The notes below the pieces were generated by a model, which made no database searches, was not told the origin of the DNA, and saw only the letters and a list, made by a program, of their open reading frames with translations. 64,000 nucleotides of DNA, from assembly GCA_947469885.1 (NCBI GenBank), contig CANIQT010000012.1, positions 4,951 through 68,950 of the forward strand, read 5' to 3'. Positions 1,601 to 39,990 of this stretch are shown here, piece after piece. Within the stretch, counting starts at the first letter, position 1; every line of letters begins with the position of its first letter. The stretch comes from Bacteroidota bacterium (lineage in GTDB: Bacteria > Bacteroidota > Bacteroidia > 2-12-FULL-35-15). The position numbers and the translations under genes were made by a program.

Positions 1601-1613
1601 CAATTAATAATTG

Positions 1614-5432: not shown

Positions 5433-5692
5433 CAAAATTGGTTCTACAGGGTTTACTGCGGAACCTGTTAAATATCTGCTAAAACACTCAAAACCTTACT
5501 TAAAGGTTTTGCCCACCCAACAGGCACCTCGACCCTGTGCAGCAAAGGCGAAAAAGTACACCGCCAGATGCTGTCCGAAAACCGATATTTTGATGGGACC
5601 TTCTGAAAACAGTTTACTGTTCATATACATAGAAATATTGATAATCAATCATTTTAGTTTGTCCCAATGACCGTTTCCTAAATGAGATATCT

Positions 5693-5916: not shown

Positions 5917-6085
5917 GAAAGGAAATTCCCGAAAAATTACTGTTCCTTAGAGTTTTGGGCTATTCTTAATATAATCATTACATTTTACGGTTCTAGAAGA
6001 CACTTTAGAGTAGTAAAAATGAAAAGATTAATTATCTTCTTTATCAAAGGCTTGATTGACATTTGTTGGTAGATATCAAAAAAAA

Positions 6086-6111
6086 TCCCTCCCGAAATTA
6101 ATCGGGAGGGA
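6086..6111 (-). terminator. Rho-independent terminator of the giant adhesin gene (bidirectional hairpin)
   Basis: A perfect 9-bp stem TCCCTCCCG / CGGGAGGGA with the loop AAATTAAT. An A8 run lies 5' and a T-rich tract lies 3', so it is U-rich on both strands. It lies 25 bp downstream of the minus-strand stop at 6136. Confidence 0.75.
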
Positions 6112-6135
6112 TTCTTTATTAATATAGAATTTCTT

Positions 6136-6393
6136 CTATTGTTTTATCACCGTTTGAGAGTGAATTACATTTGAATCAACATCCAGTAATCTTACAAAGT
6201 ACATTCCGTCTCTGTATTGTTCAATGTTTGTTTTCATCGTAGTAGTTCCACTCAACACCTGATGTCTTTCATGTATCACTATGTTGCCAAGCACATCATA
6301 CACCTCAACCACCACATCCATATCTTTTTCAGAAGTTACGTCAATTGTAAATTCAGAAGTAGCAGGATTTGGATAAATATCGGTGAAAGTAGC
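6136..6393 (-). other. T9SS type-A C-terminal sorting domain of the giant protein (last ~85 aa)
   Basis: The motif YPNPATSEFTIDV...VEVYDVLGNIV...GMYFVRL...VIKQ. It is paralogous to the C-termini of the 33127..36138 and 3744..5432 proteins. Confidence 0.7.
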
Positions 6394-15300: not shown

Positions 15301-18300
15301 TCCACTTGCAGCCGCTGTTGTAGTTATTCCAGATGGGCTTGTTCTTGTCCAAGAGAAAGTAGCACCAGAAGGTGTACTTGTCAGAACAAATGGAGTCATA
15401 CTAGCACCAGAACAAATGGTTTGAGACAATGATGGACTCACATTGATGGTTGGAATGGCGATGAACGACAACGTATTATTAGAAGTAGAACCACAGGTAG
15501 TATTCAAAGAAACAGCAACATTGTTTCCTGATACACTTGCATTTGGAACTACTGTAATAATTGAATTACTGATAATGGTAAGTCCTGTAGTTGCCAATCC
15601 TCCAATGGTTACACTTGTGGTTGTACCTAAGTTGGTACCGTTAATTTGAACAGGAGCACCCGGACAACCCGCATTGAAGCTGGAAATACTTGGTGGTGTA
15701 CTGTTCACATTCACTGCCACCGTACCCGTATTCGTACATCCGTTAGAAGATGTAGTTGTTGTTACCGTATAAGTAGTAGTAGATGAAATACCAGTTACTG
15801 TAGGATTTTGTAAAGTGGATGTTCCACCCAAGAAGGTAGTCGGACTCCAACTGTATCCTAACGTGGCTGCACCTGTAACGGATAACGCAATTGACGAGTT
15901 ACCAGTAGCACAAAGTGTAGCAGGTGTAGCTGTTATCGAATTGATAGTTACACCCGGTAACGGAGTTATAAGCTTGGTTGCTGTTGCAGTACATGAATTA
16001 GCATCTGTAACTGTAGCTGTATAGGTAGTTGCTGAAGAAGGCGTTGCCGTTACGGCTTGTCCAAATGTCGGAGTTAAGCCGGAAGTTGGCAACCAAGAAT
16101 AATTAAGTGTACCTGTTCCTCCGCTTCCTGTAACGTTAAACGAAGCAGAACTTCCTGGAGAACAGAACTGACCGTTTGAAGGTGCTGTTATCAAAGAAAT
16201 GGATGGACTAGGGTTCACATTTACAGTAACCGAAACCCTTGTTGGGTTAGGACAGGTTGCTGTATTTGCTTCTGCCCAATATGTGGTAGTTGTGGTTGGA
16301 GACACAGAGAAATTAGCCCCTGTAGCCGAAGAACCCACCAATGTTCCACCAGTTTGCTGAGTCCACCATTTAATAGTAGAGCCGGTAGAAGAAGTAGCAT
16401 TCAGATTAGCTGAAGTACCAGAACAGATAGTGGTAGGTAAAGCAGTAACACTTGTTGGAGTTAAAGCGCCCGGCAACACTGTTTGATTTACATTGGTTGC
16501 CGTAAGTGGGCTACATCCGTTTAATGATGGAGTAACTTTGTATCTTACCGTTCCGTTTGCTGCTGTAGGATTATTTAATGTCTGAGCAATAGAGGTACCA
16601 CAACTTGACGAACAATTACTATAACCTACCACACTTCCCGCAGAAGTAAGTAATTGTGTTGTCCAAGTAAAGGAAGCACCGGAAGGAGTACTGCTTAAGT
16701 TAATCGCAGTAGTATTTCCACCGCAAAAAGCAGTAGGAGCTGACGGAGAAATGGTTACACTTGGCACCGTATTCACGTTTACTGCTATTGTAGCGGATGG
16801 ACCTGAGCATCCTGCACCGAAATAAGGAGTAACTACATAATTTACAACACCAGTACCTGTTAAGGTTTGAGCTATTGAAGTAACGTTAGCTAGACTTGAA
16901 TTACTGAAACCTGTTGTGGTACCCGAAGCAAGCGATGCTGTCCATTGATAAGTGGCACCTGCAGGAGTACTTGTTAAAGCAATATTACTTACCTGCCCAC
17001 TGCAAGCCTGTTGAGGAGAAGTAGTAGCCACATTTGGTATTACCGGTGAAGTAACAGTAATTGTATAAGGAGAACCAACACAGTTGTTCAAGGTAGGAGT
17101 AACAATGTATTGAATTGTTCCCGCACCACCCAACAATTGTTGAATTGCCGAACCACAAGAACCTGCACACGCACTGTACCCAGTTGAAGTACCGGTAACC
17201 GTACCAATAGTCCACGTAAACGTAGAGTTAGCAGGTGCAGTAGTTAATAATATATTTGAAGTTGCGTTGTTACAAGCACCCACAGCACTTGGAGTAGTCA
17301 TCACAGGAGTTGGTTTTAATGTAGCACTACCATTCATGGTAACGGTACAACTTCCAGATGTAGTTTTAACAGTATAAACTCCAGGAGCACTTTGAACACC
17401 AAAAGAAATTGGAGAACCAGTTCCTGGTAAAGAAGCTCCTGTAGCCACACCATCTAAATATAAATCATAGGTTAAACCGGATTGAGAGCCATTTAAACCT
17501 AATGAGAAATTGCCAGCGGCTGAACAATCAGAACCAGAAGTAGTGATAGAGAAAGCTGTAGGCGAAGGTGATACTACCACAAAGAACGAACAAGTTGAAG
17601 TATTACCTGAAGCATCTGAAGCTATAAATGTATTGGTAGTTGTTCCAACCGGGAAAGAAGACCCGGAAGGTAAACCTGTAGTTTGAACAATGGTTGGGAA
17701 AGTAAGATTCCATGTAATTACCACCTGGCCATTACCTGAAGGATTAAATCCTGCTACATTATTCTGATTTGTACCTGAATTATAGGAACCTCCTCCTCCA
17801 CCATTGGTAGGATTATTCCACGAGGCACCACCACCAGAATATCCACCACCACCACCACCAGCAGTGTTTCCACCGCCTCCGCCACCACCAAATCCACCAT
17901 TACCGGTTGCAGTACAAACAATACCTCCTGTAGCACCATTGACAAAACCGTACCCATAAGTATTAGGGCAGCAACTGGCGTTTGCTTGTCCATTAGACAA
18001 TAAACCTCCTCCATTACCACCGCAAGCACCTCCACCTCCGCTGAAAGTGGTCGCTCCATTACCATTTATACCACCCAAACCATAATTAGCAGGGGTACCT
18101 CCCAAGCCGCTGTATCCATTGACACCAGACGTAGTAGTAACTGCATCCGCACCAACAGGTGTATAAGCATTGGTACTTACTGCAATTCCGCCACCACCTC
18201 CGGCAACAATTAAAGGGGTATTAGTACTTGTGGTAACAAATGAACCACCACCACCACCACCGCCTGAACTGGTAGCCCCATCAGCACCAACTCCTCCAAC

Positions 18301-21300
18301 GAGTACTTTAAGTACCTGACCTGGAGTAACTGCAATATCTCCTTGCATTTTTGCTCCTTTTCCCCCTGCCGGAGTAAATCCAGTGGTAATTCCACCATTC
18401 GCACCAATTGCAGTTATGTTCACAGAATTAACACCTGGAGGAACCGTGAAATTAACTATTCCACCTGTATAATTAAATGTTTGACTTCCTCCACCTGTTG
18501 AAACACAGTTATCACTAACTGTAGGAGTAGCAAATGTTACTGTTGAAAAATTGCAATTTGTATTTGTCGGGAATGCATTAATAGTAGAAGGGCATCCTGA
18601 AATAGTAGGTGCTGTTGCATCATTAACCGTTACTGTAAATACAGCTTGTGTACTACAAACTCCAGTAACTGAAGTTACTGTTACTGTTGTAACACCATTG
18701 TTGAATACAGAACCTGAACCTGTACCGTTTCCACTAGCAATAGTAGCACCTGTTAACGCATAAGTAACCGTACCTGCACTAAAAGTACACGTATAAGTAA
18801 CTGTAGCATCGCAACTGTTCGAATTCGTATTTGCAGTTAAATTGCCTGGATTAGCTGTAACAGTAGGACCAGAACCGCTAAATATAAAGGTTTGACTTCC
18901 GGTACCTGTTCCTGAACCGGTAACAACGGTAATCACTCCTGAAGTACCTGTACCTACCACTGCAGTAATTTGAGTAGCAGAGTTAACAACATAAGATGCC
19001 GCATTGGTACCTCCAAATTTAACTGAAGTTGCATTAATAAAATTAGTTCCTGTGATTATAACAGTTGTATTAGAGCATGCTGAGGTAGGACTGATATTTG
19101 TAACAGTTGGCGCACCCGGACAAGCTGTAGTGGTCACCGAAACAGGACCTACCCATGAACCATGAGTAAATGCAGCACAATTAGAACGAACATATACCTC
19201 TCTAGTTGAATTACAAGGCAATCCAGTTAATACATAATTAACATTTGAACTCGTTGTTAAGATTGTACCTGTACCTGCTGTATGACCCACTGCACCAAAT
19301 TCAACATCCCAAGAAGTTTCAGTACAACCCGCAGCCCAGTTTACGACTGCGTCAAACTGACCAGGAGAAGTAACCGCTAAAGCGGTTGGGATAGGGCAAG
19401 AAGTTGGTGCAGCTATAGTTACTAAATAATCTTCTACTTCTCCAAATGTAGTAGTTGCGCATGGGTCTATTGTTGACCCATTTGCTAAACCGAAAATACA
19501 TCTTACTCTCAACCTGTGCTGACCAACCGGAGGATTACAAGCTAAAGTAACGGGGAATCCAACTGTTGAATTAGCTGGAACAGTAGTAAGAGAATATCCG
19601 ATTCTCTCAGCTGAGGAGAAAGACCCATCGTCATTATAATCTATCCAAGCAGCATAATTTTCGGAAAACGATGATGTTGAAACATTGACTGTATAGGAAG
19701 TGCTCGCCTGAAGAGTACATGTAAAATTTGCACCCAATGCTCCAAAATTAGTATAATCATTATAACCGGAAACTCCTGCAGGACAACCAAGACCGCTAAC
19801 ATTATTTAAAGTAGTGCCTGGAATCTGAACCTGTCCAATAACATCGTTATCGGTGCATCCGAATGTAACGTAAAGATTCGAAGTACAATAGCAAGTCTGA
19901 ACATTATTCATTACCACTTGTGTTGGAGTGGAAGTACCCACATTACCCTGACAGGTAACCAAACATTGGTAATAAGTTGCAACAGATTGCGTAGTTACAT
20001 AAGTAGCCGAAGTAGCACCTGAAATATTAACAAAATTAGAGTTGGTAGGTGACGATTGCCACTGATATGTTAAGCCACCACCGACAGGAGGGGTTGACAA
20101 AGAAAGTGTTAATGAACTAGCCGGACAAACACTTGCAAGCGAAGCTAAAGTAGTTCCCGGTGAAGGAGTACCAACACAAGGTGTAGCTATCGTAGTTACA
20201 GAAGAAGATGCTCCTGGTATATAATAACAATTAGTTATTGAGTTATAATCATAAATAGTAAATGTATAAGATGTTAACTGAGTTAAACCAGTTACATTAA
20301 CTGTATTGTTATAACCATCATACACCACAAAATTACCTCCACCTAAATTACTACCAGCACCAAAAACAGAGCTTGCTGAATAGGTCAACCCACCAATTGG
20401 GTCAACAGCAGTGGTAGAAGTTAAACGAGCAACCACAATTTCTCCGGCAGTCCCGTTACCTTGAATCCAGTTAACTGTAATACCTGTTCCGGTAGTGTTA
20501 TCTGTATATGGTTGAGAAATAGCATTAGCAGAAGGGGCAGAAATGGTAACTGTAGCACCTGTACCACATGTATTAAACCCAGCACAGTTTTCGTAATTTG
20601 CATAATAAGTAGTAGTAGCAGCAGGTCCGTTTAGTCCTGATAACGTAAGCGGACTTCCTGTTCCAACCAACGTTCCACCATTACCTGTACCACATCCTCC
20701 GTTATACCATTTAATCACAGCACCAACACCCGGTGTTCCACCCGATGCAGTTAATGTTACGGTTGGGAATGGAGTACATGATAATGCAATGTTAGAAGAA
20801 GCATTAGTAGTTCCTGTTGACAAGGTAGCCACAGGAATAGTAGTAGTGCTGCTAGGAGCACCCGCACAGCTTCCTGCCACATTAGCTGTAACAGTATAGT
20901 TTTGTGGCGGTGTAATGATTCCGGTTGTTTGAGTTTCGTTTACAGAAGGAGCAGGAGCATTAGAACCTGACCAAGTGTATGTATAATAATTGGATGTAGT
21001 AGAAACTGGAGCACCTACGGAAGTCAAAGGGAAAGCTCCTGTTTTTGAATCCGCAAGTATATTGCTCGAATTCATTTTATAATAGGCTACTAAATTGCTA
21101 AAATTAGGGTGACTTGCCGTTACTTCCCTATTCATCCAGCTTTGAATATCTGCATTTGTTAAGGCTGAATTCCAAACTCTGAATTCGTCAACCTGACCAT
21201 TAAAATACGCACCGCTACCCATATTGGTTCCATCGTTACTACCGATAGCATAATATAAAAGACCGGTATTAGGATTTTGTCTTGGACCTCCGGCTGTTGA

Positions 21301-24300
21301 GGTACCAGACGGTACTCCATTTAACAATCCATCCAACGTACCTCCATTGTATCTTATTACAACATGATTCCAAGTGCCAAAAGAAACTGTTCCGATTTGA
21401 AGAGCAGTCATTGACCAAACCCGAACCATCACTTGTCCGGAAGCAAGCACCTCTATCTGGCTATCGTGCCAACCTGAATTAACAGGAAGATTTCCCTGTT
21501 CAGATACTATAACTCCGGGACCTACTGCCTTGAACCAGATTTCAAGAGTTGTGTTAGCTATTGCCGCATTAGGTAAATTGGGTGTAAGTAAATAATCTGT
21601 TGTCCCATTTAAAGTAACGCCACCACCAGCAGGAGCTAAACCACTTGCAGTTAAAGTAGCGGTACCGTTAGCACACATTGAACCGCTATTAGCAACCACA
21701 GCTGCAGCTGGTGTAGGAAGTATTGAGAATGCAGTGGTTGCTGTTGAAGTAACAGAGCATGCCCCGTTGCTAACCACTACATCATAAATAGCACCCGATT
21801 CAGACAATCCAGGATTAGTAATTGTTAATGTAGCAGAAGTAGCACCGGAATATGGAGCAACATTCGATAAATTAGTTCCATTTTTTCTCCATTGATAACC
21901 TGTAACAGTTCCTGTTGCAGTAACAGAAATAGTTCTGGTTCCGTTACTAACGCAAACAGGTGCAGGAGATACCGGTTGAACGGTAATAACAGGAGTGTTT
22001 ACTGTAACTGTAACCGGAGGACGTGTTGTAGAAGCGCATCCTGAGATATTCCACGAAATAACAACCTGTCCGTTTCCGGTTTGAGCACCTGCAGTGTTAA
22101 CCTGGTTAGTTCCGGAATTGTAGGAACCACCGCCACCACCACCGGTATAAGGTTGAGTACCGGAAGTACTACCACCGGAGTATCCACCTCCACCTCCACC
22201 TTGTCCACCTGTCGACCAACCGCAACCTCCGCCACCAAAACCACCTATTGAAGTACCATTATTGGCACCTGTACCGCCATTCACATAAGCAAGTGGATTT
22301 GCAGACCCACCTGATCCATTTGTTAAAAATCCTGCTCCACCACTTCCGCTTCCAGTAACATTGGTTCCACCATTACCTGCGGTTCCACCAGCAACTAATC
22401 CGTTTCCGCTGGCTGTTCCAGATGTGGTTATTGAGGCATTTAATCCGTCTAACTGACCCGCACCACATGTTGCAATATTATTAGAGGCACCGCCTCCGCC
22501 TCCGGCAATTATTAAAGGTGTGTTTCCTGAAGCAACAACGAATGAGCCACCGCCTCCGCCACCTTCAGAACCATTTGTTAAGCCCTGCTGACCAACAAGT
22601 ACAGACAGTATCTGCCCCGGAGTTACCGCAAAAGTACCCTGCATACTTGCTCCTAAACCACCTGTGTGAGGACAAGTAGTAGTTACGGAGCCACCTTGAG
22701 CTCCTTTGGCAAGAATTGTTACAGTTGAAACACCAACAGGAACTGTAAATGTACTTATTGAACCTGTGTAATTAAAAGTTTGAGAACCCACCGCTCCGTT
22801 ATTTGCTTCCGCATAATAAGTAGTGGTTACAGCTGGTGTAACACCAAAATTGGCTGCCGAAGCGGAAGTACCTAATAGGGTACCATTTGTAGCAGCGTTG
22901 TACCAGAAAATAGAACTTCCTGCAGAAGTAGCATTAAGATTAGCTGCTCCGTTTGCACACACCGAAGTTGGAGTAGCTGTAACCGGTGAAGGAGCTGCAG
23001 GAACTGTATTTACAGTTAATATTCTTGCAGTTGAAGTAACAGTACAAGTTGTTCCATTACCAACCACACAAGTTAAAGAAGCATTATTCTCAGCTGCTGA
23101 AGGGTTTGTAATGGTTAAAGTACTAGTATTAACACCACTATAAGGTGCTGTGTTGGTTAAAGGAGTTACACCTTTATACCATTGATAAGTAGTGGCATTG
23201 GTGGCAGTAACACTTAAAGTTGCTATTCCGGCACCACAAATAGGAGCAGGCGTTACAGGTTGTACTGTAATTGCAGGATAAGTATTAACGTTAACGGTAA
23301 GTGGCACACGAGTAGAAGCACATCCAAGCACATTCCAAGTAATTACAACTTGACCGTTACCAGCATTATTTCCAGCAGTATTAACTTGCGAAGTTCCACC
23401 GTTGTAAGAACCACCTGCATTTCCAATAGTATTAACAGCTACACCCCATCCACTACCTCCGCTATATCCACCACCACTACCAGCTTGCTGATTACAACTT
23501 CCTACATAATTAGCAGCTGTTCCTCCACCAAACCCACCGGTTTGGTAAGAAGCAGCATAAAGTGCAGCAGGAGCACCTCCGGCACCACCTTGTCTGAAAC
23601 CTGCACCTCCAAAGAAACCATAAAGCACGTCATTTCCACCCGAAGTGTAGAAACCACCACCACCACCAACACAACTCATTGCAGGAGCTCCGTTTCCACC
23701 TGTTCCTGGGTTTGTTCCGGTACCCGAGGTTGTAAAAGGAGCACCAGTTCCTGTTGCACCACTATAAGCACCACCACCTCCACCAGCAACAATCAAAGGA
23801 TTTGCTGTTGCGAAACTTGCACCATCTGCAACAAAGGTTCCTCCACCTCCGGCTGGATACAATGTAGTAAGACCTGGACTTTGACCAACTAATATAGAAA
23901 GAACCTGACCTGGTGTAACCGCAAATGTTCCTTGCATGGTTGCTCCATTACCTGCTGTTGAACCAGATGTAAAACCTCCTGATGCTCCTTTAGCAGTTAT
24001 ATTTAATGAGGTTACAGTAGCAGGTACTGTAAAATTAACTATTGAACCTGTATAATTGATAGTCTGAGAACCTGATCCGCCATTGTTTGCCTCAACATAA
24101 TAAGTTGTGTTTACTGTTGGCGTTACAGGAAAATTAGCTGCAGATGCAGAACTTCCATACAATGTTCCGCCAACTGATTGGCTATACCAGTTAATGGTAT
24201 TACCCGTTGATATAGCAGAAAGATTAGCAGTACCACCTGTACAAAGTGATGAAGGATTTGAAGAAACTCCTGATGGAGGAAGCGGAGCTGATGATACCGT

Positions 24301-27300
24301 TACATCCACATTCACCGGGTTGCCCGGACAAACTGCCGAAGCAGGAGTAACCACATATCTTACTACACCTGAAGACCCTGAATTGTTGGTTAATGTTTGA
24401 GCTATTGTTGAACCACTTGACGGAGTAAATCCTGTGATAGTTCCTCCCGAAATTTGAGAAACTGTCCATGAATAGGTGGTGCCTCCGGTTAATGCAATAT
24501 TAGTGGGGATACCACTACATAAAGCTTGAGAAGAAGGAGTAGCTGTTGCAACAGGCGCTGCTTGTAAGGTTACGGTAATTGTTTTAACAGTACCCGGACA
24601 AGAAGCCCCAAAATAAGGTGTAACATTGTATTGAACAGTGCTGCCATTAGCACCTGTTAAAGTTTGACCAATAGTACTATTGCAAGACGTAGCACAAGCA
24701 CTTGCACCTGAAACACCACTAATTGTACCAAGTGTCCATGTATAAGTTGCTCCCGCAGGAGAACTAGCTAATGGAATATTTGCCACCTGACCCGCACATG
24801 CTGGTTGAGCAGCTGCTGTGGTGATTGTTGGAGGGGTACTTACTGTAACGGTAATGGGATAAACAGAACCAGTACATCCGTTAAGGACAGGTGTAACACT
24901 GTAAACAGCGGTTCCACCTAATCCTACAAGCGTGTTGGCAATAGTACTTCCACTTCCGGAAGTTCCACCCGTTACTCCTGTCATCACTGGTGCAGGCCAA
25001 CTAAAGGTTGCTGCCCCTGAAGGGTTGGTTGTTAAAACAATGTTTGAAAGTACATTATTACACGAACCTGCACTGCTTGGTGTTGTTACCACAGGAGTAG
25101 CAAATAAAGTTACATTGCCTGACATTGTAGTAATACATGCTCCTGATGTTGCTTTTACGGTATAAACTCCTGCAACTGTTTGTGTACCGAAAGTGATGGC
25201 ACCTCCTGTTCCTGCTACAGTTGAGCCGCCAACAAGAATTCCATCCTTATATAAATCATAGTTTACACCTGATTGAGAGCCACTAAGGTTGACAACAAAG
25301 TTTGCTGCCGCAGTACAAGTTGAACCTGTTTGAGTAACATTAAATGCTGTTTGGGTTGCTACCGTAACTGTAAAAGATTGGGAGGTAACATTACCCGCAG
25401 CATCAGTTGCTGTAAATGTATTGGTAGTGGTTCCTAAAGGATAGTTAACACCTGATGCCAAACCTGCTGATTGAGTAGGGGCAATAGATGGTGTCAAACC
25501 ATTCCAGGTAATTACGATTTGTCCATTTCCTGTGTTCCCAATAGAGTTACTTTGAGCAGTACCTCCATTATAAGAACCTCCTCCATAACCAACATATGCC
25601 AGACCACCACTGTTCATACCACTGCCGCCACTATATCCTCCACCAGCTCCCGCTTCCATGTTACATGAACCATAGTAATTTGGAGAAGCTCCTCCTCCAA
25701 ATCCACCAGTTGAGTAATTTGTTCCACCACTTCCTCCGGCTCCTCCCTGCTGAAATCCTGCTCCCCCGGTAGCTATAAAACTAGGTGATGTTAAGTTGTC
25801 ATTACCACCAGAAGTATAATAACCTCCTGCACCACCTCCGCAAGAGGTTGTAGGCGCACCATTTCCATTTGTACCCGGTGCTGGTCCGTTACCACTTGTG
25901 GTTAGAGATGCATTACCACCAAGACCTGAAACAGAACCACCACCGCCTCCGGCAACTATCATTGGTGTTGCCGTGGTATTTGAAGCCCCTAATCCCACAA
26001 AAGTTCCGCCACCTCCGGCAGCAAAACTATAATTGTTTGGTGGCTGTTGCCCAACCAAGTAAGACAATACCTGTCCGGGAGTTACCGTAAATGTACCAGT
26101 CATGATTGCTCCCAAACCACCTGTTCCTCCATTCGACCCACCCTGTGCACCTTTGGCTGTTATATTTATTGACGTTACACCGTTAGGAACCGTGAATGTT
26201 CCGATTGATCCTGTATAATTAAATGTCTGGCTTCCAACCACTAAAAAACCACAATTATCTGTAGTAGTAGGAGCGGTATAAGCTACCACTTTTCCATTAC
26301 AAGTTGCATTATCTGCAACAACAGTAATATTAGCAGGCACATTCACTACTGGTGCTGTAACATCGTTTACAGTAACTGTAAACGAAATATTGGCTGTACA
26401 CCCCCCAAAGGTTGCACTTAGAGCAACAGTAGTAACACCTCTGTTAAAAGTAGAGCCCGAGCCATTGCCGGAACCGCTACCAGTTGTTGCACCAGTAAAC
26501 ACATAAGAAAGACTACCCTGTGTGGTAGTAGCAGTATAATTAACTACTGCCTGGCAGGAATTGTTTGCAGCCGCTGTTTGAGGACCTGGATTAGAAATAA
26601 CAGGACCATTAACCGTTACAGCAGAAGATGTTCTTGTTAAAGAAGTACAACCTACAACATTAGGCCATGAAATTATTACTTGACCATTACCAGAACGAAC
26701 ACCACCTTGAGCAAGTAATGTTGATCCATTAATAATGGAACCACCTCCTCCACCAACACCATAATAGGTACCACCTCCACCACCGGAATAGCCACCTCCG
26801 CCTCCGCCTCCTGTCCAGCTTGACCATTCTCCGGCACCTCCGCCACCAAATCCTCCATTACCTGCACCAACTGAAATACCTCCTGCACCTCCATTTGTAA
26901 ATGACCTGCCTCCTGTGCTGGCAGCTATACAATCAGAGCCATTTCCGGTAAGACCACCACCACCTGCACCTTCAGATTGACCAACATAGGCAGGAGCACA
27001 TCCTCCACCTGATCCAGCTGCTCCTCCCACTCCTCCTGTAGTACTTAAATTGGCATAAATACCGGCATTACCCGCTGTAGCGGTAGAACCATTACTATTA
27101 GCAGCAGAATAAGCGCCACCTGAATAATAACCACCGCCACCGCCTCCGGCAACAACTAAAGCCGCATTTGCATTGGTGGTTACAAACGAACCACCTCCGC
27201 CACCACCTTGATTGCCGGAACCACCTTGGCCCCCAACCAGTATTTTTAAAATATCTCCGCCATTAACAGAAACTGTACCCTGCATTCTAGCACCCAATCC

Positions 27301-29370
27301 ACCTGCACCACCGATTCCTGCGCCACCTTGTGCACCATACGCATCAATGGTAATGGAATTGACACCGGCAGGAACTGTAAAATTAACAATAGAGCCTGAA
27401 TAGGAAAATGTTTGTGAACCGGCTTGTGTTCCACTCTGAGTTTCTGCCCAATAAGTTGTTGTTCCGGCAGGGGTTACCGAAAAATTTGCTGCGCTTGCAA
27501 CAGTTCCTAATAATATACCACCTGTAGAAGCATTGTACCAATTAATAGAGTTACCCGCAGATGTTGCATTAAGATTAGCTGACTGTCCCAAACAAATGCC
27601 CGCAGGAGTATTTACTGAAGGCGCGGCTGGACTTAGCAAACCGCTACCAGTTGCCACCACATTTATATTTGGAGCACCGCCTCCGCTAATAACGATATTA
27701 CCAGTATAAGACTGAACAGCAACAGGGCTGAATTTCACAAATATGGTAGTATTGGTAGTTCCTGCCCCCGGAGTAAAAGTTAAAGAAGAAGTATAGGTAC
27801 CATTTGATGTTAATGAATACGAAAAGCCTGAAAGTGCAGCTAAAGTAACACTTGCTGCAGTAAGGTTGCTGCCCGTTAATATAAAAGAGTTAGGACCAGC
27901 TGTTGAACCGGAACATACATTTCCGAATGCCGCAGGAGGAATGGATACTTGCAGAATAGGAGATATAGAAAGTGTGGTAAAGGTACCTTGGGTACTATAA
28001 GAAATACCAGCACCGTCTTGTGCTTTTAAGTGATAATAATAAACAGTGCTTGGAGTGAGTCCTGTAATAGTGGTCGTATAATTAGCAGGACCTCCTGTTC
28101 CGGCCGTAAAAGTTCCTGTACCATTGGCAAAACCATTGGTAGTACTCCTTTCCACACCGTAAGAAATAACTGAAGAACACCCTTGAGTATAAGTTCCTGT
28201 AATCACTGCTCCATTTGAATTAGGATTTACACTGCCCAAGGTAAGGGCAACAGGAGTATTGACCCCTGTACCTGAAGCAGCAACGTTTATAGTTGCAGCA
28301 CCACCACCACCAACCGGAATATTTCCGGTAAATGTGCCGGCACCCGGGGCAGTAAACTTAACGAAAATAGCTTGAGAATAAGCCCCTCCTGCCTGAGCTA
28401 AGGAAAGAGTGCTGGTATAAGTACCGCCAGCAGTGGTTGAATAACTAAAATTTGCTAAAGCACCAACAGTAACATTGGCAGTTGACAAAGATGTACCAGT
28501 AATGGTAAATGAATTAGGTCCGACTGTTGCGCCCGGACAAGCACCAGTGAGCGGAGCCAAAGCCGTGGCTGAAAGACTGGAAGCAAATGCTCCGCTAATC
28601 CATGTAATTGTAGTAGTAGTATTAGCGCTTGCTGTACCACAGCTAACGTTAGTATTAGAGTGGCAATAATAAGTTCCTGCTACTGTAGATGTAAAGATTA
28701 ACGGTGTACCACCTGAAGCAACAATAGGACCGTTAGAAGAACCAGAGTGAATAGTAATCCATGAGGTTGCAGTACTATTGGTATATTTATAGGTTGTAAG
28801 CGCAGCTATACCAGAGATGGTAGTATATTCAGATTGATAACTAGCTGTACTTATTGTTACTGGTCCTGGTGCCACTGAGGTTGGAGCAGTAGCTGAACCA
28901 TAAGCTGAAGCATTTGTACAGCCTCCTGTACCAACAGCACCGCAGGTAACACAACCAATTGCGGTTGTAGTATTTACAGAGGCGGTCCCGCAAGTAGCAT
29001 TGGTATTAGAGTGACAATAATAGGTACCGGCTATTGGGGCGGTAAACACCAATGGTGTTTTTCCAAAAGCAACAACAGGTCCGTTAGATGTGGTTGCATG
29101 AATTGTTATGTACGAAGCTGCAGCACTATTGGTGTAAATATACTTATTCCCAGCAACAATACCACTGACAGTAGTATATTCACTTTGATAACTTGCGGTT
29201 GAAATAGTAACTACAGTTGCATTAGTAGGTGCAGTTGCACTACCATAGGCACTAGCATTAGTACACTGGGCACTCAACCTAGAAGTTGTAAATCCAACTA
29301 AAAGAACTGCACAGATTAACCAACGTGTGATAGTGTTAATTGTTTTTTTAGAATTTGTAAATTTTTCCAT
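6136..29370 (-). CDS. Giant (7,744 aa) multidomain cell-surface adhesin-like protein, a T9SS substrate: five Gly-rich modules, HYR tandem array, LamG, GEVED, MAM-like, Fn3 and Ig/PKD-like domains, type-A T9SS C-terminal domain
   Basis: A single uninterrupted 23.2-kb ORF. It has a signal peptide (MEKFTNSKKTINTITRWLICAVLLVGFTTSRLSAQ). The C-terminus ...FTDIYPNPATSEFTIDV...MYFVRLLDVDSNVIHSQTVIKQ matches a Por-secretion sorting domain. The composition is dominated by T/G/S/A/N/V. The many antisense ORFs in the track are low-complexity artefacts. Confidence 0.9.
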   Translation of the reverse strand: MEKFTNSKKTINTITRWLICAVLLVGFTTSRLSAQCTNASAYGSATAPTNATVVTISTASYQSEYTTVSGIVAGNKYIYTNSAAASYITIHATTSNGPVVAFGKTPLVFTAPIAGTYYCHSNTNATCGTASVNTTTAIGCVTCGAVGTGGCTNASAYGSATAPTSVAPGPVTISTASYQSEYTTISGIAALTTYKYTNSTATSWITIHSGSSNGPIVASGGTPLIFTSTVAGTYYCHSNTNVSCGTASANTTTTITWISGAFASSLSATALAPLTGACPGATVGPNSFTITGTSLSTANVTVGALANFSYSTTAGGTYTSTLSLAQAGGAYSQAIFVKFTAPGAGTFTGNIPVGGGGAATINVAASGTGVNTPVALTLGSVNPNSNGAVITGTYTQGCSSVISYGVERSTTNGFANGTGTFTAGTGGPANYTTTITGLTPSTVYYYHLKAQDGAGISYSTQGTFTTLSISPILQVSIPPAAFGNVCSGSTAGPNSFILTGSNLTAASVTLAALSGFSYSLTSNGTYTSSLTFTPGAGTTNTTIFVKFSPVAVQSYTGNIVISGGGAPNINVVATGSGLLSPAAPSVNTPAGICLGQSANLNATSAGNSINWYNASTGGILLGTVASAANFSVTPAGTTTYWAETQSGTQAGSQTFSYSGSIVNFTVPAGVNSITIDAYGAQGGAGIGGAGGLGARMQGTVSVNGGDILKILVGGQGGSGNQGGGGGGSFVTTNANAALVVAGGGGGGYYSGGAYSAANSNGSTATAGNAGIYANLSTTGGVGGAAGSGGGCAPAYVGQSEGAGGGGLTGNGSDCIAASTGGRSFTNGGAGGISVGAGNGGFGGGGAGEWSSWTGGGGGGGYSGGGGGTYYGVGGGGGSIINGSTLLAQGGVRSGNGQVIISWPNVVGCTSLTRTSSAVTVNGPVISNPGPQTAAANNSCQAVVNYTATTTQGSLSYVFTGATTGSGSGNGSGSTFNRGVTTVALSATFGGCTANISFTVTVNDVTAPVVNVPANITVVADNATCNGKVVAYTAPTTTDNCGFLVVGSQTFNYTGSIGTFTVPNGVTSINITAKGAQGGSNGGTGGLGAIMTGTFTVTPGQVLSYLVGQQPPNNYSFAAGGGGTFVGLGASNTTATPMIVAGGGGGSVSGLGGNASLTTSGNGPAPGTNGNGAPTTSCGGGAGGYYTSGGNDNLTSPSFIATGGAGFQQGGAGGSGGTNYSTGGFGGGASPNYYGSCNMEAGAGGGYSGGSGMNSGGLAYVGYGGGSYNGGTAQSNSIGNTGNGQIVITWNGLTPSIAPTQSAGLASGVNYPLGTTTNTFTATDAAGNVTSQSFTVTVATQTAFNVTQTGSTCTAAANFVVNLSGSQSGVNYDLYKDGILVGGSTVAGTGGAITFGTQTVAGVYTVKATSGACITTMSGNVTLFATPVVTTPSSAGSCNNVLSNIVLTTNPSGAATFSWPAPVMTGVTGGTSGSGSTIANTLVGLGGTAVYSVTPVLNGCTGSVYPITVTVSTPPTITTAAAQPACAGQVANIPLASSPAGATYTWTLGTISGVSGASACATSCNSTIGQTLTGANGSTVQYNVTPYFGASCPGTVKTITVTLQAAPVATATPSSQALCSGIPTNIALTGGTTYSWTVSQISGGTITGFTPSSGSTIAQTLTNNSGSSGVVRYVVTPASAVCPGNPVNVDVTVSSAPLPPSGVSSNPSSLCTGGTANLSAISTGNTINWYSQSVGGTLYGSSASAANFPVTPTVNTTYYVEANNGGSGSQTINYTGSIVNFTVPATVTSLNITAKGASGGFTSGSTAGNGATMQGTFAVTPGQVLSILVGQSPGLTTLYPAGGGGTFVADGASFATANPLIVAGGGGGAYSGATGTGAPFTTSGTGTNPGTGGNGAPAMSCVGGGGGFYTSGGNDVLYGFFGGAGFRQGGAGGAPAALYAASYQTGGFGGGTAANYVGSCNQQAGSGGGYSGGSGWGVAVNTIGNAGGSYNGGTSQVNTAGNNAGNGQVVITWNVLGCASTRVPLTVNVNTYPAITVQPVTPAPICGAGIATLSVTATNATTYQWYKGVTPLTNTAPYSGVNTSTLTITNPSAAENNASLTCVVGNGTTCTVTSTARILTVNTVPAAPSPVTATPTSVCANGAANLNATSAGSSIFWYNAATNGTLLGTSASAANFGVTPAVTTTYYAEANNGAVGSQTFNYTGSISTFTVPVGVSTVTILAKGAQGGSVTTTCPHTGGLGASMQGTFAVTPGQILSVLVGQQGLTNGSEGGGGGGSFVVASGNTPLIIAGGGGGASNNIATCGAGQLDGLNASITTSGTASGNGLVAGGTAGNGGTNVTGSGSGGAGFLTNGSGGSANPLAYVNGGTGANNGTSIGGFGGGGCGWSTGGQGGGGGGYSGGSTSGTQPYTGGGGGGSYNSGTNQVNTAGAQTGNGQVVISWNISGCASTTRPPVTVTVNTPVITVQPVSPAPVCVSNGTRTISVTATGTVTGYQWRKNGTNLSNVAPYSGATSATLTITNPGLSESGAIYDVVVSNGACSVTSTATTAFSILPTPAAAVVANSGSMCANGTATLTASGLAPAGGGVTLNGTTDYLLTPNLPNAAIANTTLEIWFKAVGPGVIVSEQGNLPVNSGWHDSQIEVLASGQVMVRVWSMTALQIGTVSFGTWNHVVIRYNGGTLDGLLNGVPSGTSTAGGPRQNPNTGLLYYAIGSNDGTNMGSGAYFNGQVDEFRVWNSALTNADIQSWMNREVTASHPNFSNLVAYYKMNSSNILADSKTGAFPLTSVGAPVSTTSNYYTYTWSGSNAPAPSVNETQTTGIITPPQNYTVTANVAGSCAGAPSSTTTIPVATLSTGTTNASSNIALSCTPFPTVTLTASGGTPGVGAVIKWYNGGCGTGNGGTLVGTGSPLTLSGLNGPAATTTYYANYENCAGFNTCGTGATVTISAPSANAISQPYTDNTTGTGITVNWIQGNGTAGEIVVARLTSTTAVDPIGGLTYSASSVFGAGSNLGGGNFVVYDGYNNTVNVTGLTQLTSYTFTIYDYNSITNCYYIPGASSSVTTIATPCVGTPSPGTTLASLASVCPASSLTLSLSTPPVGGGLTYQWQSSPTNSNFVNISGATSATYVTTQSVATYYQCLVTCQGNVGTSTPTQVVMNNVQTCYCTSNLYVTFGCTDNDVIGQVQIPGTTLNNVSGLGCPAGVSGYNDYTNFGALGANFTCTLQASTSYTVNVSTSSFSENYAAWIDYNDDGSFSSAERIGYSLTTVPANSTVGFPVTLACNPPVGQHRLRVRCIFGLANGSTIDPCATTTFGEVEDYLVTIAAPTSCPIPTALAVTSPGQFDAVVNWAAGCTETSWDVEFGAVGHTAGTGTILTTSSNVNYVLTGLPCNSTREVYVRSNCAAFTHGSWVGPVSVTTTACPGAPTVTNISPTSACSNTTVIITGTNFINATSVKFGGTNAASYVVNSATQITAVVGTGTSGVITVVTGSGTGTGSQTFIFSGSGPTVTANPGNLTANTNSNSCDATVTYTCTFSAGTVTYALTGATIASGNGTGSGSVFNNGVTTVTVTSVTGVCSTQAVFTVTVNDATAPTISGCPSTINAFPTNTNCNFSTVTFATPTVSDNCVSTGGGSQTFNYTGGIVNFTVPPGVNSVNITAIGANGGITTGFTPAGGKGAKMQGDIAVTPGQVLKVLVGGVGADGATSSGGGGGGGSFVTTSTNTPLIVAGGGGGIAVSTNAYTPVGADAVTTTSGVNGYSGLGGTPANYGLGGINGNGATTFSGGGGACGGNGGGLLSNGQANASCCPNTYGYGFVNGATGGIVCTATGNGGFGGGGGGGNTAGGGGGGYSGGGASWNNPTNGGGGGSYNSGTNQNNVAGFNPSGNGQVVITWNLTFPTIVQTTGLPSGSSFPVGTTTNTFIASDASGNTSTCSFFVVVSPSPTAFSITTSGSDCSAAGNFSLGLNGSQSGLTYDLYLDGVATGASLPGTGSPISFGVQSAPGVYTVKTTSGSCTVTMNGSATLKPTPVMTTPSAVGACNNATSNILLTTAPANSTFTWTIGTVTGTSTGYSACAGSCGSAIQQLLGGAGTIQYIVTPTLNNCVGSPYTITVTSPVIPNVATTSPQQACSGQVSNIALTSTPAGATYQWTASLASGTTTGFSNSSLANVTSIAQTLTGTGVVNYVVTPYFGAGCSGPSATIAVNVNTVPSVTISPSAPTAFCGGNTTAINLSSTPSGASFTWTTQLLTSAGSVVGYSNCSSSCGTSIAQTLNNPTAANGTVRYKVTPSLNGCSPLTATNVNQTVLPGALTPTSVTALPTTICSGTSANLNATSSTGSTIKWWTQQTGGTLVGSSATGANFSVSPTTTTTYWAEANTATCPNPTRVSVTVNVNPSPSISLITAPSNGQFCSPGSSASFNVTGSGGTGTLNYSWLPTSGLTPTFGQAVTATPSSATTYTATVTDANSCTATATKLITPLPGVTINSITATPATLCATGNSSIALSVTGAATLGYSWSPTTFLGGTSTLQNPTVTGISSTTTYTVTTTTSSNGCTNTGTVAVNVNSTPPSISSFNAGCPGAPVQINGTNLGTTTSVTIGGLATTGLTIISNSIITVVPNASVSGNNVAVSLNTTCGSTSNNTLSFIAIPTINVSPSLSQTICSGASMTPFVLTSTPSGATFSWTRTSPSGITTTAAASGTATTISGNFTTSNGTSTAVPFTINASNGGCPATPVTATVTLSPFLSGVTASSNPPAICAGGTINLLASVSTLSPTLLDPTTNGGFEGGTVGLAASGWSEAQGAVNRQWGVNTAPGVQGGTYAAYEGSETNNNYNGNNTANSVGHFYRDVVVPADYTNVNLSFYYKMPTVDPNNDIFYVYTTTPSNTPVYNTTATLPGGGFTQVYTNTSTAIANYTLQSIPLSGVAGTTVRIVFTFKSNGVTPFANPAVDNVSVTGTPPVATYAWTGPNSFSSSLQNPTGVTPPNLPVNTYSVTATSAGACAVQTVTVAGATPVTCGALTIGGVSTCLGVQTVTAHPTGGNTPYTYVWTQDGLAFGGNTATINSGLGTHTYACSITDACGTNCSSSTSPITTANAPVAVITSPNNTTFCSGVGAPLDATTTGSPTYQWKLGASNIGGATSSTFSPSSTGAYSVIVTEFGCSVTSPQITISTVAAGITLNYVTATPASICNNTSSVLAAGVAAAPVYTTPVSSNGGSTGHEITNFTGLGFAYTNGTPTVSPGYLNRTTTVGTFAANSATSVSVQSNINDSYKVWIDMNDNGSFEDASELLCTSSVGVNPLVTALTIPASCPNGNHRLRIRNTDITANAIAGVSSISAITSGVTIDFTITVTGGVAPAVTYSWLPVTFLGGVTTGPSVTGSNITSPTTYTVTATASSGCHASGTVPVTIKPIATNGTTATTASICTGATTSVALNSSIPGGTWSWVAADNTNVTGESTSNQTLGTITNTLALNTGVITNQDVVYTVTPISPSPDVCAGTPFTVTVTVKPKPTVTNVTPMATVCSGSAISVPLTANIASTFTWVAANNANTTGESLITQNSSTLNNTVTSNNGVTTQQTITYTVTPTSNGCTGAALTRTVLVNPRPGLNVSDITYCPGDAPVTLLNASAPGTTYTWTASSSSPSLTGWSACTSGCGNQINTTNQPLVNNGSTDATVTYIITPVSTIGLLGCAGAPITHHATLGITPADPVVSPTAVVCSGTNANISITAAGNPDFNWTVDPNYSTNVNGPLDCAGACGNAITDFLTNSGTTDEVVIYTVGSNSTEPSACPSLSTVDVAVTIPRNFTINASAAANGTISPSGANNGVCHGTDAPYAINANSNYHIDDLSVDGVTVNAAIGLSSYTYTFINVSADHTINATFALNCTMPVITPPSPITVGNDLHVCGAIVNYSASIAGIPSPSVTYSENSGTFFSLGITTVTISATNLCGTVTSDFDITINDTEAPVITVPAQNMTVQSDGAGNVNEFYDWLITNWADADATDNCTDALHLDNYWVNDYNSANWINQCGTTGRSGLVGFQVYDQAGNYSNSTYAEFKIIDNIAPVITVPPAIVIQENTGNGTSTEPIGTATGTDIGSAVTITYDPQGPYPVGTTTVTWTATDACGNASTGTQVVTVSDTQDPIITCSLSQTQSANLGQCSSYVTVFPPAFSDNSPGASISNDYNFTADASDVYPVGTTTIIWTVTDGSGNSVTCHQDVVITDDELPLITCAPEQDETADLSQCTTFVTVVQPTFSDNCTGSTISNDYNNSPDASDTYPVGTTTVIWTVTDGHGNSATCHQDIVVTDDELPIITCAPEQTHTADLHQCTGFITVTPPSFTDNCSGSTLTNDYNNSTDASGIYPVGTTTVIWTAIDDHGNSATCHQDIVITDDELPLITCAPEQFQTADLNQCSSFVIVIPPSIADNCTGSTISNDYNNTADASDVYPVGTTTIIWTVEDGNGNSATCHQDITVTDDELPTIVCPSEQFQTAELDMCEAFVSISTPQTADNCTGLTITNDYNNTNDASDIYPVGTTTLTWTVLDGYGNSSTCHQDITVTDDQLPMIVCAVAQTQVNDPGQSSAFVSVVTPTFSDNCTAVTIANSYNGTNDATDVYPVGTTTIEWTVTDVHGNTTTCHQDISVTDGEMPTIACDGTITLSADAGLCETAVVVTTPVFGDNSPGVYIVNNITGTDDASGIYPVGITTIEWTVTDFDGNTVSCHQDVQVTDDEFPSITCSGSQTQTADAGTNTAAVTVTAPIFGDNCTGATITNDYTNTNDASGNYPVGTTTVNWEVTDANGNTSTCHQDITVTDDESPTITCSGSQGQTADVGACNAVVSVTTPVFGDNVAGATVINDYTNTDDASGTYPVGTTTVNWTVTDVAGNTSTCHQDITVTDDELPLVSAPASITVCGGAATVVVLGTPSGSDNCGTVTYSSDAPATFGVGTTVVTWTAEDANGNTATATQNVTVLPYFNMVASAGANGSITPNGTTATCSGTSQIYVITANPGFHILDVLVDGVSNSGAIASGTYTFTNVTTTHTISATFESNCTVPLFTNCPATINANTATGLCSSVVTYSSATSGTTPTITYVLSGATTGSGSGNASGTAFNRGTTTVSLTATNGCGVASCSFNITVNDAELPTITAPTAVTVCNGLPVVLGTPVANDNCTYTVTNNHPSSTYPVGTTVVTWTVTDGSGNTATATQNVTVTPTPVVTATGPGTGVICNGANVQLSLNSTVSGSTFTWTSLVTAGGVLGSTNCASNCGTTIQDVLSNSGNVYGVVQYTIVANGGGCTSAPLVVNTTVGAIPATPVISGLSVVCGLSSATYSVAAVPLATNYTWALSAGSTGMTLSGIGQGTTSITVTFSGTVSGNVTCTASNNCGNSGTASIGVSKSPATPTPVQGPASLCGMIGTQVTYSTTTTVGAAANGANGAYTWTVPAGMTIVSGQGTTSIVAQYNTSFVSGTVKVTANNACSFPGPAATLAVTGAAPASPPASISGPANVCGMTTATYSAPPVAGATSYLWSITGAGTITGSNTGTSVTVNLSGTTAGSISVYAVNSCGNSPTARTLNLIITSTAPGTITGPANTCGMTTATYSVTAVANHTYTWTLATGQSFINGSQQGNSTIIVNIAPSVGVTTATSLLKVTASNGCTTTAASQKTITRCLDPNAMNNEVESSATFTDIYPNPATSEFTIDVTSEKDMDVVVEVYDVLGNIVIHERHQVLSGTTTMKTNIEQYRDGMYFVRLLDVDSNVIHSQTVIKQ
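8450..11600 (-). repeat. Tandem array of ~13 HYR (hyalin-repeat) domains in the giant protein, period 249 bp (83 aa), approx. coordinates
   Basis: The unit DDELPxITCxxxQxxTADxxQCxxFVxVxxPxFSDNCTGxTIxNDYNxxxDASxxYPVGTTTxxWTVTDxxGNSxTCHQDIxVTD repeats 11 times strictly, with 2-3 more divergent copies. The DNA landmark CATCAGGATAT recurs every ~250 bp from 8741 to 10740. Confidence 0.75.
13330..13800 (-). other. GEVED-like domain 2 within the giant protein (approx.)
   Basis: The segment ...GFAYTNGTPTVSPGYLNRTTTVGTFAANSATSVSVQSNINDSYKVWIDMNDNGSFEDASELL...NGNHRLRIRNTD... resembles the GEVED architecture but lacks the literal GEVEDY motif. Confidence 0.4.
14500..15050 (-). other. MAM-like / galactose-binding-like beta-sandwich domain within the giant protein (approx.)
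   Basis: The segment LLDPTTNGGFEGGTVGLAASGWSEAQGA...GHFYRDVVVPADYTNVNLSFYYKMPTVDPNNDIFYVYTT...VRIVFTFKSNG...AVDNVSVTG. A GGFE...W start and a DNVxV end are typical of MAM and CBM-like sandwich domains. Confidence 0.4.
17700..18570 (-). other. Gly-rich module 5 of the giant protein (FNYTGGIVNFTVPPGV...GGGGGGGSFV...GGGGGSYNSGTNQ...NGQVVITW), approx.
   Basis: CCACC runs at 17800-17900 on the DNA encode GNGGFGGGGGGGNTAGGGGGGYSGGG. Confidence 0.6.
19420..19960 (-). other. GEVED domain within the giant protein (approx.)
   Basis: The segment CYCTSNLYVTFGCTDND...AAWIDYNDDGSFSSAERIG...GQHRLRVRCIF...TTFGEVEDYLVTI carries the signature GEVEDY motif, encoded at ~19424-19445. Confidence 0.6.
21120..21650 (-). 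other. Laminin-G-like / concanavalin-A-like lectin domain (LamG_3-type) within the giant protein
   Basis: The segment ...LEIWFKAVGPGVIVSEQG...WNHVVIRYNGGTLDGLLNGV...AYFNGQVDEFRVWNSALTNADIQSWM. The final DE-x-R-hydrophobic-W motif is characteristic of the domain. Its position was confirmed by back-translating 21121-21210. Confidence 0.6.
22040..27450 (-). repeat. Four further Gly-rich modules (modules 1-4, each ~250 aa) of the giant protein, interleaved with Ig-like/HYR-like domains; approx. module spans 26670-27450, 25480-26250, 23330-24080, 22040-22760
   Basis: Each module begins (S)QTFNYTGSIxxFTVPxGVxSxxIxAKGAQGG, then ...TPGQVLxxLVGQ...GGGGG(S/T)FV...PLIVAGGGGG..., and ends GGSYNxGTxQxN...GNGQVxIxW. 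The DNA shows matching CCACC/CCGCC runs. Confidence 0.65.

Positions 29371-36207: not shown

Positions 36208-39990
<3,783 letters not shown>

Follow-up and report, generated by a model that had tools for sequence, protein, structure and literature searches.

The locus considered here raises the question of what kind of domain has been placed five times, as a glycine-rich module of about 250 residues, into a giant protein of a member of the Bacteroidota, and what role such modules might play there. The protein is encoded in a 64,000-nucleotide stretch of contig CANIQT010000012.1 (assembly GCA_947469885.1, positions 4,951 to 68,950 of the forward strand), which was analysed at its full length and is referred to below as the window. 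An earlier note on this DNA had described the modules as structurally and functionally uncharacterised, each lying directly after an Ig-like or HYR domain, and had proposed either a beta-helix or beta-roll-like fold or a flexible spacer. The evidence assembled here indicates that each module (M1 to M5, numbered from the N-terminus) is almost certainly a bacterial homologue of the TG supradomain, the combination of a TNF-like and a glycine-rich part found in metazoan ALK and LTK, and that it is nested inside an Ig-like host domain.

The modules are delimited on both sides by conserved motifs. The lead-in motif [FI]x[YF][TS]G[SG]IxxFTVP occurs exactly five times in the giant protein (at residues 655, 1050, 1771, 2199 and 3632), as does the exit motif GNGQ[VI][VI]I[TS]W (ending at residues 902, 1289, 2012, 2440 and 3887), and the modules bounded by these motifs are 248-264 residues long. 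They are located at 17701-27423 of the window, in agreement with the five copies previously reported between 17700 and 27450. A hidden Markov model (HMM) of 50 family members, the five window modules among them, identifies exactly five domains in all six-frame open reading frames (ORFs) of the window (independent E-values 1e-45 to 1e-75), with HMM positions 2-241 covered in all five and no sixth match at E<=10. Glycine accounts for 27-36% of the residues; pairwise identity is 47-65% and drops to 30-54% without the Gly-Gly columns. The alignment by glycine positions that the earlier note had proposed contains 78 invariant columns, with the fixed Gly runs conserved. Within the modules, conservation is highest in the Gly lattice, the connectors between the invariant runs are variable and rich in indels (M4 positions 35-43, 69-75, 104-114, 143-148, 160-166, 177-182, 192-196 and 212-216), and divergence of the five copies is greatest in the loops. 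At the DNA level, identity between modules reaches 64-82% only in short stretches, and hence the modules are old, diverged copies that stem neither from a recent duplication nor from faulty assembly. M2 and M3 share a pair of cysteines (module positions ~133-135 and ~192-194) that is missing from M1, M4 and M5. A 210-aa ORF lies antisense to M3 (window 23260-23892, plus strand); it is most likely a shadow ORF that results from backward reading of the GGN-rich coding strand and not a gene.

Sequence comparison links the modules to a single family of known structure. When M4 alone was compared with the sequences in the PDB (phmmer), only the extracellular ligand-binding region of ALK was returned (E 2.2e-4), and a profile of the five modules matched ALK with an E-value of 1.8e-8 and LTK with 4.2e-3. 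The alignment with ALK extends over the Gly runs as well as the sandwich strands, and non-Gly anchors are matched, too (VP...I..GA.GG, L.iLVGQQG): the module segment TVP...I.A.GA.GG...G.s..G.F.v.pgq.L.vLVGQQG is aligned with ALK KVPATDTYSISGYGAAGG, and the subsequent runs correspond as PLIIAGGGGG/PLIIAAGGGG, GGFGGGG/GGFGGGG and GGGGGYSGG/GGGGGYIGG (module/ALK).

The predicted structures point to the same family. A template-free AlphaFold2 model of M4, generated from a 50-sequence alignment, has a mean predicted local distance difference test (pLDDT) score of 92.7 and a predicted template-modelling (TM) score of 0.92. All nine beta-strands of this model are in residues 2-96 and 228-247, whereas residues 97-227, 40% of which are glycine, contain no helix or strand according to DSSP, with block pLDDT of 77-98. 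In a Foldseek search of the PDB, the top 21 matches of the M4 model are TG structures of ALK and LTK (E 5e-11 to 1e-5, probability 1.0, query-normalised TM up to 0.70), followed by the tail tip of mycobacteriophage Bxb1 and the tail fibre of cyanophage Pam3. M5, which was modelled together with its HYR flanks, also template-free, gave a pLDDT of ~90 for the module (mean of 83.6 for the whole model) and matched ALK/LTK with a TM of 0.62 when normalised to the TG domain of LTK. The ALK/LTK structures were released in 2021, later than the training cut-off of AlphaFold2, and therefore this agreement does not represent memorisation. The prediction of a discrete, well-bounded and folded module made in the earlier note is borne out by these models, and neither a flexible spacer nor a structure prediction that yields only disorder, as the note had contemplated, is compatible with the confident models of M4 alone and of M5 with its flanks.

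Records of this domain family, of the fold and of prokaryotic members already exist (Pfam PF12810, PF21722; PDB 7LRZ, 7NX1 and others). The affinity with PF12810-like Gly-rich families surmised previously is upheld: PF12810, the present name of which is 'ALK/LTK, Glycine-rich domain' (ALK_LTK_GRD), and its sister model PF21722 (Gly_rich_2, 'Glycine-rich domain') each cover most of the module (positions 6-225 of 226 in the case of PF21722), and relatives that are 40-50% identical to the modules are annotated with PF12810, PF21722 or both. M4 scores 25.7 bits against PF21722, for which the gathering score is 24.3; no match to PF21722 or PF12810 was found for M1, M3 and M5 at E<=0.1, and a scan of M4 and M5 with PF12810 at a permissive threshold gave only 8.5-11 bits. 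The sub-threshold scores are probably due to composition corrections. The five modules have no match in NCBIfam at E<=1. Typical bacterial relatives annotated as 'glycine-rich protein' are ~385 aa long and consist of one module and a Por_Secre_tail domain, in contrast to the five nested copies in the 7,744-aa protein, four of which fall below the Pfam threshold and are left unannotated by a standard Pfam run. With regard to the claim that the module is uncharacterised, the structural part does not hold, given the match by both sequence and fold to the solved TG domains, whereas the functional part stands for the bacterial members. The alternative considered in the earlier note, namely that the module would turn out to be a trivially common annotated domain, is essentially what was found, considering the thousands of relatives described below, many of which carry PF12810.

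The likeness to the TG domains of ALK and LTK (PDB 7LRZ, 7MZY, 7N00, 7NWZ, 7NX1, 7NX4, 7LIR) comprises sequence homology that is detectable across most of the module, a predicted beta-sandwich with an inserted Gly-rich subdomain that is neither alpha nor beta, the signature runs PLIIAxGGGG, GGFGGGG and GGGGGYxGG, and an extracellular location. The differences are equally clear. The module has ~250 residues compared to ~310 in ALK and is devoid of the ALK-specific insertions; the giant protein carries the domain five times, every copy being embedded in an Ig-like domain; and, according to Pfam, it has no EGF-like domain, transmembrane helix or kinase and is a prokaryotic secretion cargo, such that the homology is at the level of the domain only.

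The second part of the answer concerns the placement of the modules. They do not follow Ig-like domains, as had been thought, but interrupt them: M1, M3 and M4 are inserted in Ig_7 domains, and M2 and M5 in HYR domains. In the intact protein, the Pfam matches to the hosts are cut off before M1 and M3 and after M5; when each module was removed in silico and the joined flanks were rescanned with Pfam, an Ig_7 or HYR domain was restored in every case (Table 1). The insertion site differs between the two host types. In Ig_7, it lies between the last two strands, that is, between ...TTYY(A/V)EA.. and the final GC.S.R..V.V strand, and in HYR, directly behind the conserved DNC. The flanked M5 model predicts, at moderate confidence, four strands ahead of the module and three behind it. 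Sequence identity cuts across the host type, with 65% between M2 (in HYR) and M3 (in Ig_7) and 58% between M4 (in Ig_7) and M5 (in HYR), which, in a set of only five sequences, hints weakly at a possible exchange of modules or hosts.

Table 1. Window coordinates of the giant gene, the five glycine-rich modules and the two parts of each host domain, in order from the N-terminus of the protein (i-E, independent E-value; joined flanks, Pfam match after removal of the module)
Feature	Position	Strand	Remarks
Giant ORF, 7,744 aa	6136..29370	(-)	single uninterrupted reading frame
Host Ig_7 of M1, N-terminal part	27433..27630	(-)	profile positions 1-66 of 84 in intact protein (Pfam)
M1, TG-type domain (predicted TNF-like sandwich and Gly-rich subdomain)	26656..27423	(-)	aa 650-905; 36% Gly; i-E 1.2e-45
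Host Ig_7 of M1, last strand (PNVVGCTSLTRTSSAVTVNG)	26605..26664	(-)	joined flanks Ig_7 1-83 of 84, E 1.6e-14
Host HYR of M2, N-terminal half, ending ...DNCGFLVVG	26233..26364	(-)	joined flanks HYR 2-81 of 81, E 3e-9
M2	25495..26238	(-)	aa 1045-1292; i-E 2.3e-46; PF21722 14.7 bits, below threshold
Host HYR of M2, C-terminal half	25357..25503	(-)	joined flanks as for the N-terminal half
Host Ig_7 of M3, N-terminal part	24070..24285	(-)	profile positions 5-68 of 84 in intact protein (Pfam)
M3	23326..24075	(-)	aa 1766-2015; i-E 9.7e-53
Host Ig_7 of M3, last strand	23281..23334	(-)	joined flanks Ig_7 5-83 of 84, E 2.5e-15
Host Ig_7 of M4, N-terminal part	22786..23001	(-)	joined flanks as for the last strand
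M4, modelled alone	22042..22791	(-)	aa 2194-2443; PF21722 25.7 bits; ALK/LTK by sequence and fold
Host Ig_7 of M4, last strand	21994..22050	(-)	joined flanks Ig_7 1-83 of 84, E 3e-14
Host HYR of M5, N-terminal half	18487..18621	(-)	joined flanks as for the C-terminal half
M5, modelled with HYR flanks	17701..18492	(-)	aa 3627-3890; ALK/LTK fold match E 1.8e-11; phrog_22713 2.1e-31
Host HYR of M5, C-terminal half	17569..17709	(-)	profile positions 41-81 of 81 in intact protein; joined flanks HYR 2-81 of 81, E 3.5e-11
Por_Secre_tail, type IX secretion C-terminal sorting domain	6148..6378	(-)	E 1.5e-12; extreme C-terminus of giant protein

The nested architecture is not limited to the window. Among 50 testable modules in loci from other genomes, a HYR domain was rebuilt across the junction in 3 and an Ig_7 domain in 8. 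Three small T9SS (type IX secretion system) proteins consist of a HYR domain with an inserted module and a C-terminal domain (CTD) for sorting (P0010, P0013 and P0017), and a 7,819-aa giant T9SS protein from the library of representatives (P0133) contains at least 10 near-tandem units of HYR with a nested TG module, followed by long arrays of other repeats; P0133 demonstrates that whole nested cassettes can be multiplied. The nesting in Ig_7 and HYR hosts and its recurrence in other genomes are new in this analysis. In the full-text literature that could be searched, which did not cover the 2021 papers on ALK/LTK structures, there is neither a description of this architecture nor a paper on the bacterial modules.

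The giant protein combines at least 12 HYR domains with PKD_5, PKD_6, Ig_7, two GEVED domains, Laminin_G_3 and Por_Secre_tail, as identified by Pfam. Its N-terminus is hydrophobic and signal-peptide-like by inspection, and together with the Por_Secre_tail domain (a type A CTD), this feature identifies the protein as a predicted T9SS cargo. It resembles the giant secreted surface proteins of Bacteroidota of the SprB or CHU type, which are built from HYR, PKD, Ig_7 and GEVED domains: there are thousands of residues of tandem Ig-like repeats and a C-terminal sorting domain, and the adjoining genes encode additional T9SS cargo. The TG modules are an extra element compared to these proteins. The Laminin_G_3 (concanavalin-like lectin) domain, which is located between M4 and M5 (aa 2588-2743, window 21142-21609, minus strand, E 2.6e-19), and the two GEVED domains are further candidate binding elements of the protein. 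Near the N-terminus (aa ~36-260, window ~28590-29265, minus strand), a Cys-containing segment of ~115 aa is tandemly duplicated (CTNASAYGSATAPT...YYCHSNTN..CGTAS); this segment has no Pfam match at E<=0.01.

The TG module is widespread. When 1.84 billion representatives of clusters at 50% identity were searched exhaustively, 11,842 proteins matched at E<=1e-3, of which 5,093 remained at E<=1e-10 and 826 at E<=1e-30; many of these are giants with 3-10 matched stretches. A word-indexed search returned at least 1,961 proteins at E<=1e-5, many of them ~385 aa in length with one module and a T9SS sorting domain, and other relatives end in IPTL-CTERM or begin with a type-IV-pilin-like segment. Among contigs sampled at one genome per species, the domain is present in Bacteroidota, Gammaproteobacteria, Myxococcota, Planctomycetota, Acidobacteriota, Verrucomicrobiota, Zixibacteria and DPANN archaea, with 2-4 modules per ORF seen within 6-kb loci. 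Four contigs of archaeal metagenome-assembled genomes (MAGs), assigned to Woesearchaeota, Nanohalarchaeota and 'uncultured archaeon' (L021, L049, L051 and L057), encode TG modules, with up to three per ORF; if the archaeal binning is correct, the TG domain extends beyond bacteria and their phages.

The module is also frequent in viruses. At least 42 viral contigs encode the module, and on viral contigs the module-bearing proteins adjoin genes for tail fibres and virion structure. The viral models in BFVD include 151 matches at E<=1e-3 (best TM 0.82, with 36% identity), and two PHROGs families, phrog_22713 and phrog_7388, match the module with E-values down to 2e-31. A tblastn search of phage GenBank records with M4 gave one weak match, with the low-complexity filter as the probable cause. 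Receptor-binding fibres of phages with TNF-like and/or polyglycine-rich tips of known structure, namely Pam3 gp24 (PDB 7YPX, 7YFW), gp38 of Salmonella phage S16 (6F45) and the Bxb1 tail tip (9D93), are matched by the M4 model with Foldseek E-values of 3e-4 to 1e-3; as appears to be the case in the modules, a TNF-like sandwich is combined with a Gly-rich lattice in which variable loops link conserved Gly motifs (PMC9608196). The similarity to Pam3 gp24 is nevertheless weak in structural terms (E 1e-3, TM ~0.37), and in phages the domain caps trimeric fibres at their distal C-terminus and frequently depends on a chaperone, whereas the window modules are internal and nested in a cellular T9SS protein. 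On two viral contigs (L077, positions 3695-7606, and L078, positions 3674-7544), a tail-fibre gene (phrog_5342) is followed immediately downstream by the genes of three paralogous proteins of ~340 aa, all of which carry a TG module at the C-terminus, and a small ORF (phrog_13558) comes after the first paralogue; this layout recalls the gp24 fibre and gp25 chaperone of Pam3.

The functions of the better-studied relatives suggest what the modules might do. The glycine-rich domain of ALK binds the peptide activators of this receptor, and its lattice of polyglycine-II (PGII) helices has fourteen members in the human receptors, ALK as well as LTK, and ten in ALK of C. elegans (bioRxiv 10.1101/2023.11.25.568672). 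Gp24 of Pam3 is a tail fibre with TNF-like and Gly-rich domains that superposes on C. elegans ALK; its Gly stems are conserved, and its variable distal tips have been proposed to bind the host receptor (PMC9608196). In the predicted fold, the ~95 N-terminal and ~25 C-terminal residues of each module form a TNF-like beta-sandwich, and the central ~130 residues, 40% of them glycine and marked by GGGGG[ST]FV, PL[IV][IV]AGGGGG, GGFGGGG and GGGGGYSGG, would form a compact bundle of PGII helices in hexagonal packing, with phi/psi near -75/145 degrees, held together by backbone hydrogen bonds; the PGII geometry of the Gly runs is what we infer from ALK and LTK. Being spliced into a loop of its host domain, each module would project sideways from a rod made up of Ig, HYR and PKD domains in tandem, and the 7,744-aa protein would be exported by the T9SS and displayed on the cell surface. 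The Gly lattice might then serve as a rigid scaffold poor in side chains, with the variable helix-connecting loops as binding surfaces, and the five diverged modules might be lateral heads that differ in specificity and serve adhesion or the recognition of ligands. Because ALK binds ligands through this domain and the phage relatives are found in a tail-fibre setting, we lean, with modest confidence, towards the view that the modules are rigid binding heads on the side of an adhesin stalk displayed through the T9SS, and that each has a loop repertoire of its own. The explanation as a whole, from the TG identity and the nesting to surface display and binding, appears probable.

Several observations weigh against this explanation. 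The TM to ALK is moderate (0.55-0.70, at an rmsd of 4-9 Å), which is accounted for by the additional insertions in ALK; composition can inflate the E-values of Gly-rich sequences; M4 is the sole module above any Pfam gathering threshold, M2 reaching only the PF21722 score given in Table 1; and the host-domain flanks in the flanked M5 model are only moderately confident (pLDDT 58-83). As for binding, the matching phage families are listed in PHROGs as 'unknown function', and neither the ALK nor the phage fibre domains are nested, such that the binding geometry in the giant protein may differ from theirs. We know of no experiment on, or ligand of, any bacterial member and, in particular, of no ALKAL-type ligand for the bacterial modules. 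The same fold could also have a purely architectural role, as rigid, protease-resistant bulk or spacer that stiffens or thickens the fibre or shields the cell surface with no specific ligand. This possibility, which we consider rather unlikely, would be in keeping with the conservation of the Gly lattice, with the predominance of structural Ig, PKD and HYR repeats in the giant protein, and with the near-tandem series in P0133, which is suggestive of a building block rather than of a specific receptor. However, nested modules are side branches that would not lengthen the stalk, the five copies have diverged mostly in the loops, and every characterised relative (ALK, LTK and Pam3 gp24) employs the domain for recognition (PMC9608196; bioRxiv 10.1101/2023.11.25.568672). 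A different use of the TNF-like sandwich would be oligomerisation, either bundling several giant proteins or folding one back on itself, so as to build a surface lattice; several copies per chain could zip chains together, and the fold matches both ALK, the TG domains of which are found in ligand-induced dimers, and the trimeric Pam3 fibre (PMC9608196). Given that the Pam3 trimer is held together chiefly by an N-terminal helical bundle, with only loose contacts between the TNF-like domains (PMC9608196), and that no coiled coil or helical bundle was seen alongside the modules in the giant protein, we regard this option as improbable.

Two further proposals start from the Gly runs themselves. 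In the antifreeze proteins of snow fleas, PGII bundles serve as the scaffold that binds ice (bioRxiv 10.1101/2023.11.25.568672), and flat, repetitive bundle faces could bind ice or mineral surfaces as in these springtail proteins; an accession prefix (CANJ...) similar to that of MAG records which are named after lakes and belong to the related loci hints, weakly, at a cold-capable freshwater habitat. Yet no antifreeze protein is among the sequence or fold matches, the family is spread over many habitats and phages, and the bundle, if arranged as in its ALK/LTK homologues, would be partly packed on the beta-sandwich and not form a free two-layer sheet, which makes ice binding highly improbable. 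The Ca2+-binding beta-roll or beta-helix and the flexible low-complexity spacer, the two ideas put forward in the earlier note, would be compatible with the high glycine content and the regular spacing of the Gly runs, but we assign them a negligible probability: each module contains only 0-1 GGxGxD motifs and 1-5 acidic residues (Asp and Glu), the Foldseek search returned no beta-roll, the template-free models have the sandwich-plus-bundle topology of ALK/LTK and not that of a beta-solenoid, and a spacer would not be expected to retain 78 invariant columns between copies this divergent. RTX-type beta-roll repeats, which are tandem GGxGxDxUx nonapeptides with Asp as the Ca2+ ligand, were rejected on the same counts.

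Genes around the giant gene encode further surface or secreted proteins. One neighbour (window 40725-48062, minus strand, with a likely start at 47987) is a protein of 2,445 aa (or 2,420 aa from that start) with a CHU_C domain, a type-B T9SS CTD. Its Gly-rich N-terminal ~300 aa had been thought to be related to the modules, but this relationship was rejected: the region matches the NCBIfam model gliding_AgmC_N (NF047640; E 8.8e-53, 179.7 bits, below the cutoff of 275), hhalign gives a probability of 3.9% for a relationship with the module, the module HMM has no match in it at E<=10, and a sequence search of the PDB with this region returned no match. A 1,260-aa collagen-like protein (36208-39990, minus strand; Pfam Collagen, 1.3e-129) contains Gly-X-Y repeats in 11 stretches, begins with a signal-like segment and ends in a non-collagen domain of ~200 aa; this gene is responsible for the local GC content of 0.51 and the strong GC skew. 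A 1,003-aa PKD/HYR T9SS protein is also encoded near the giant gene, and between the giant gene and the next gene for a T9SS protein are a putative endonuclease of the Uma2 family (29822-30397, minus strand, 3.6e-35) and a 318-aa ORF without a Pfam match (31098-32054, minus strand). Just beyond the 3' end of the giant gene, the plus strand encodes an ECF-type sigma factor and, after it, an anti-sigma-like protein of the zf-HC2/TonB_C type (935-3011), as well as a 562-aa T9SS cargo with no other recognised domain (3744-5432). Proteins identical to the neighbours are found on metagenome contigs and in the MAG GCA_947472355.1.

No new principle emerges from this locus, and the understanding of the family is unchanged; what is gained is a useful annotation and a target for structural biology. 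A defined fold can be assigned to ~1,270 residues of a giant surface protein in place of an 'uncharacterised low-complexity region', four-fifths of which a standard Pfam run leaves without annotation. Bundles of PGII helices are usually listed as a few rare cases, namely antifreeze proteins, Obg, gp38 and ALK/LTK; if the geometry of ALK and LTK extends to the modules, such bundles would be abundant in the surface proteins of prokaryotes and phages, as suggested by the 11,842 cluster representatives. The nested unit of an Ig-like host and a TG module offers a simple picture of how binding heads could be mounted on the side of an adhesin stalk, and such units are small, well-bounded constructs for structural work and scaffold engineering. 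They also provide a starting point for asking where the ligand-binding domain of ALK and LTK came from. A bolder and, in our judgment, doubtful scenario is that the TG modules of prokaryotes and phages are the ancestral form of this metazoan domain, which was acquired by horizontal transfer. If true, the bacterial modules would be loop-programmable PGII receptors for peptides or surface molecules, and the cassettes of an Ig-like host with its TG module would be shuffled between proteins and host types, as the similarities of M2 to M3 and of M4 to M5 might hint, thereby diversifying the specificity of adhesins.

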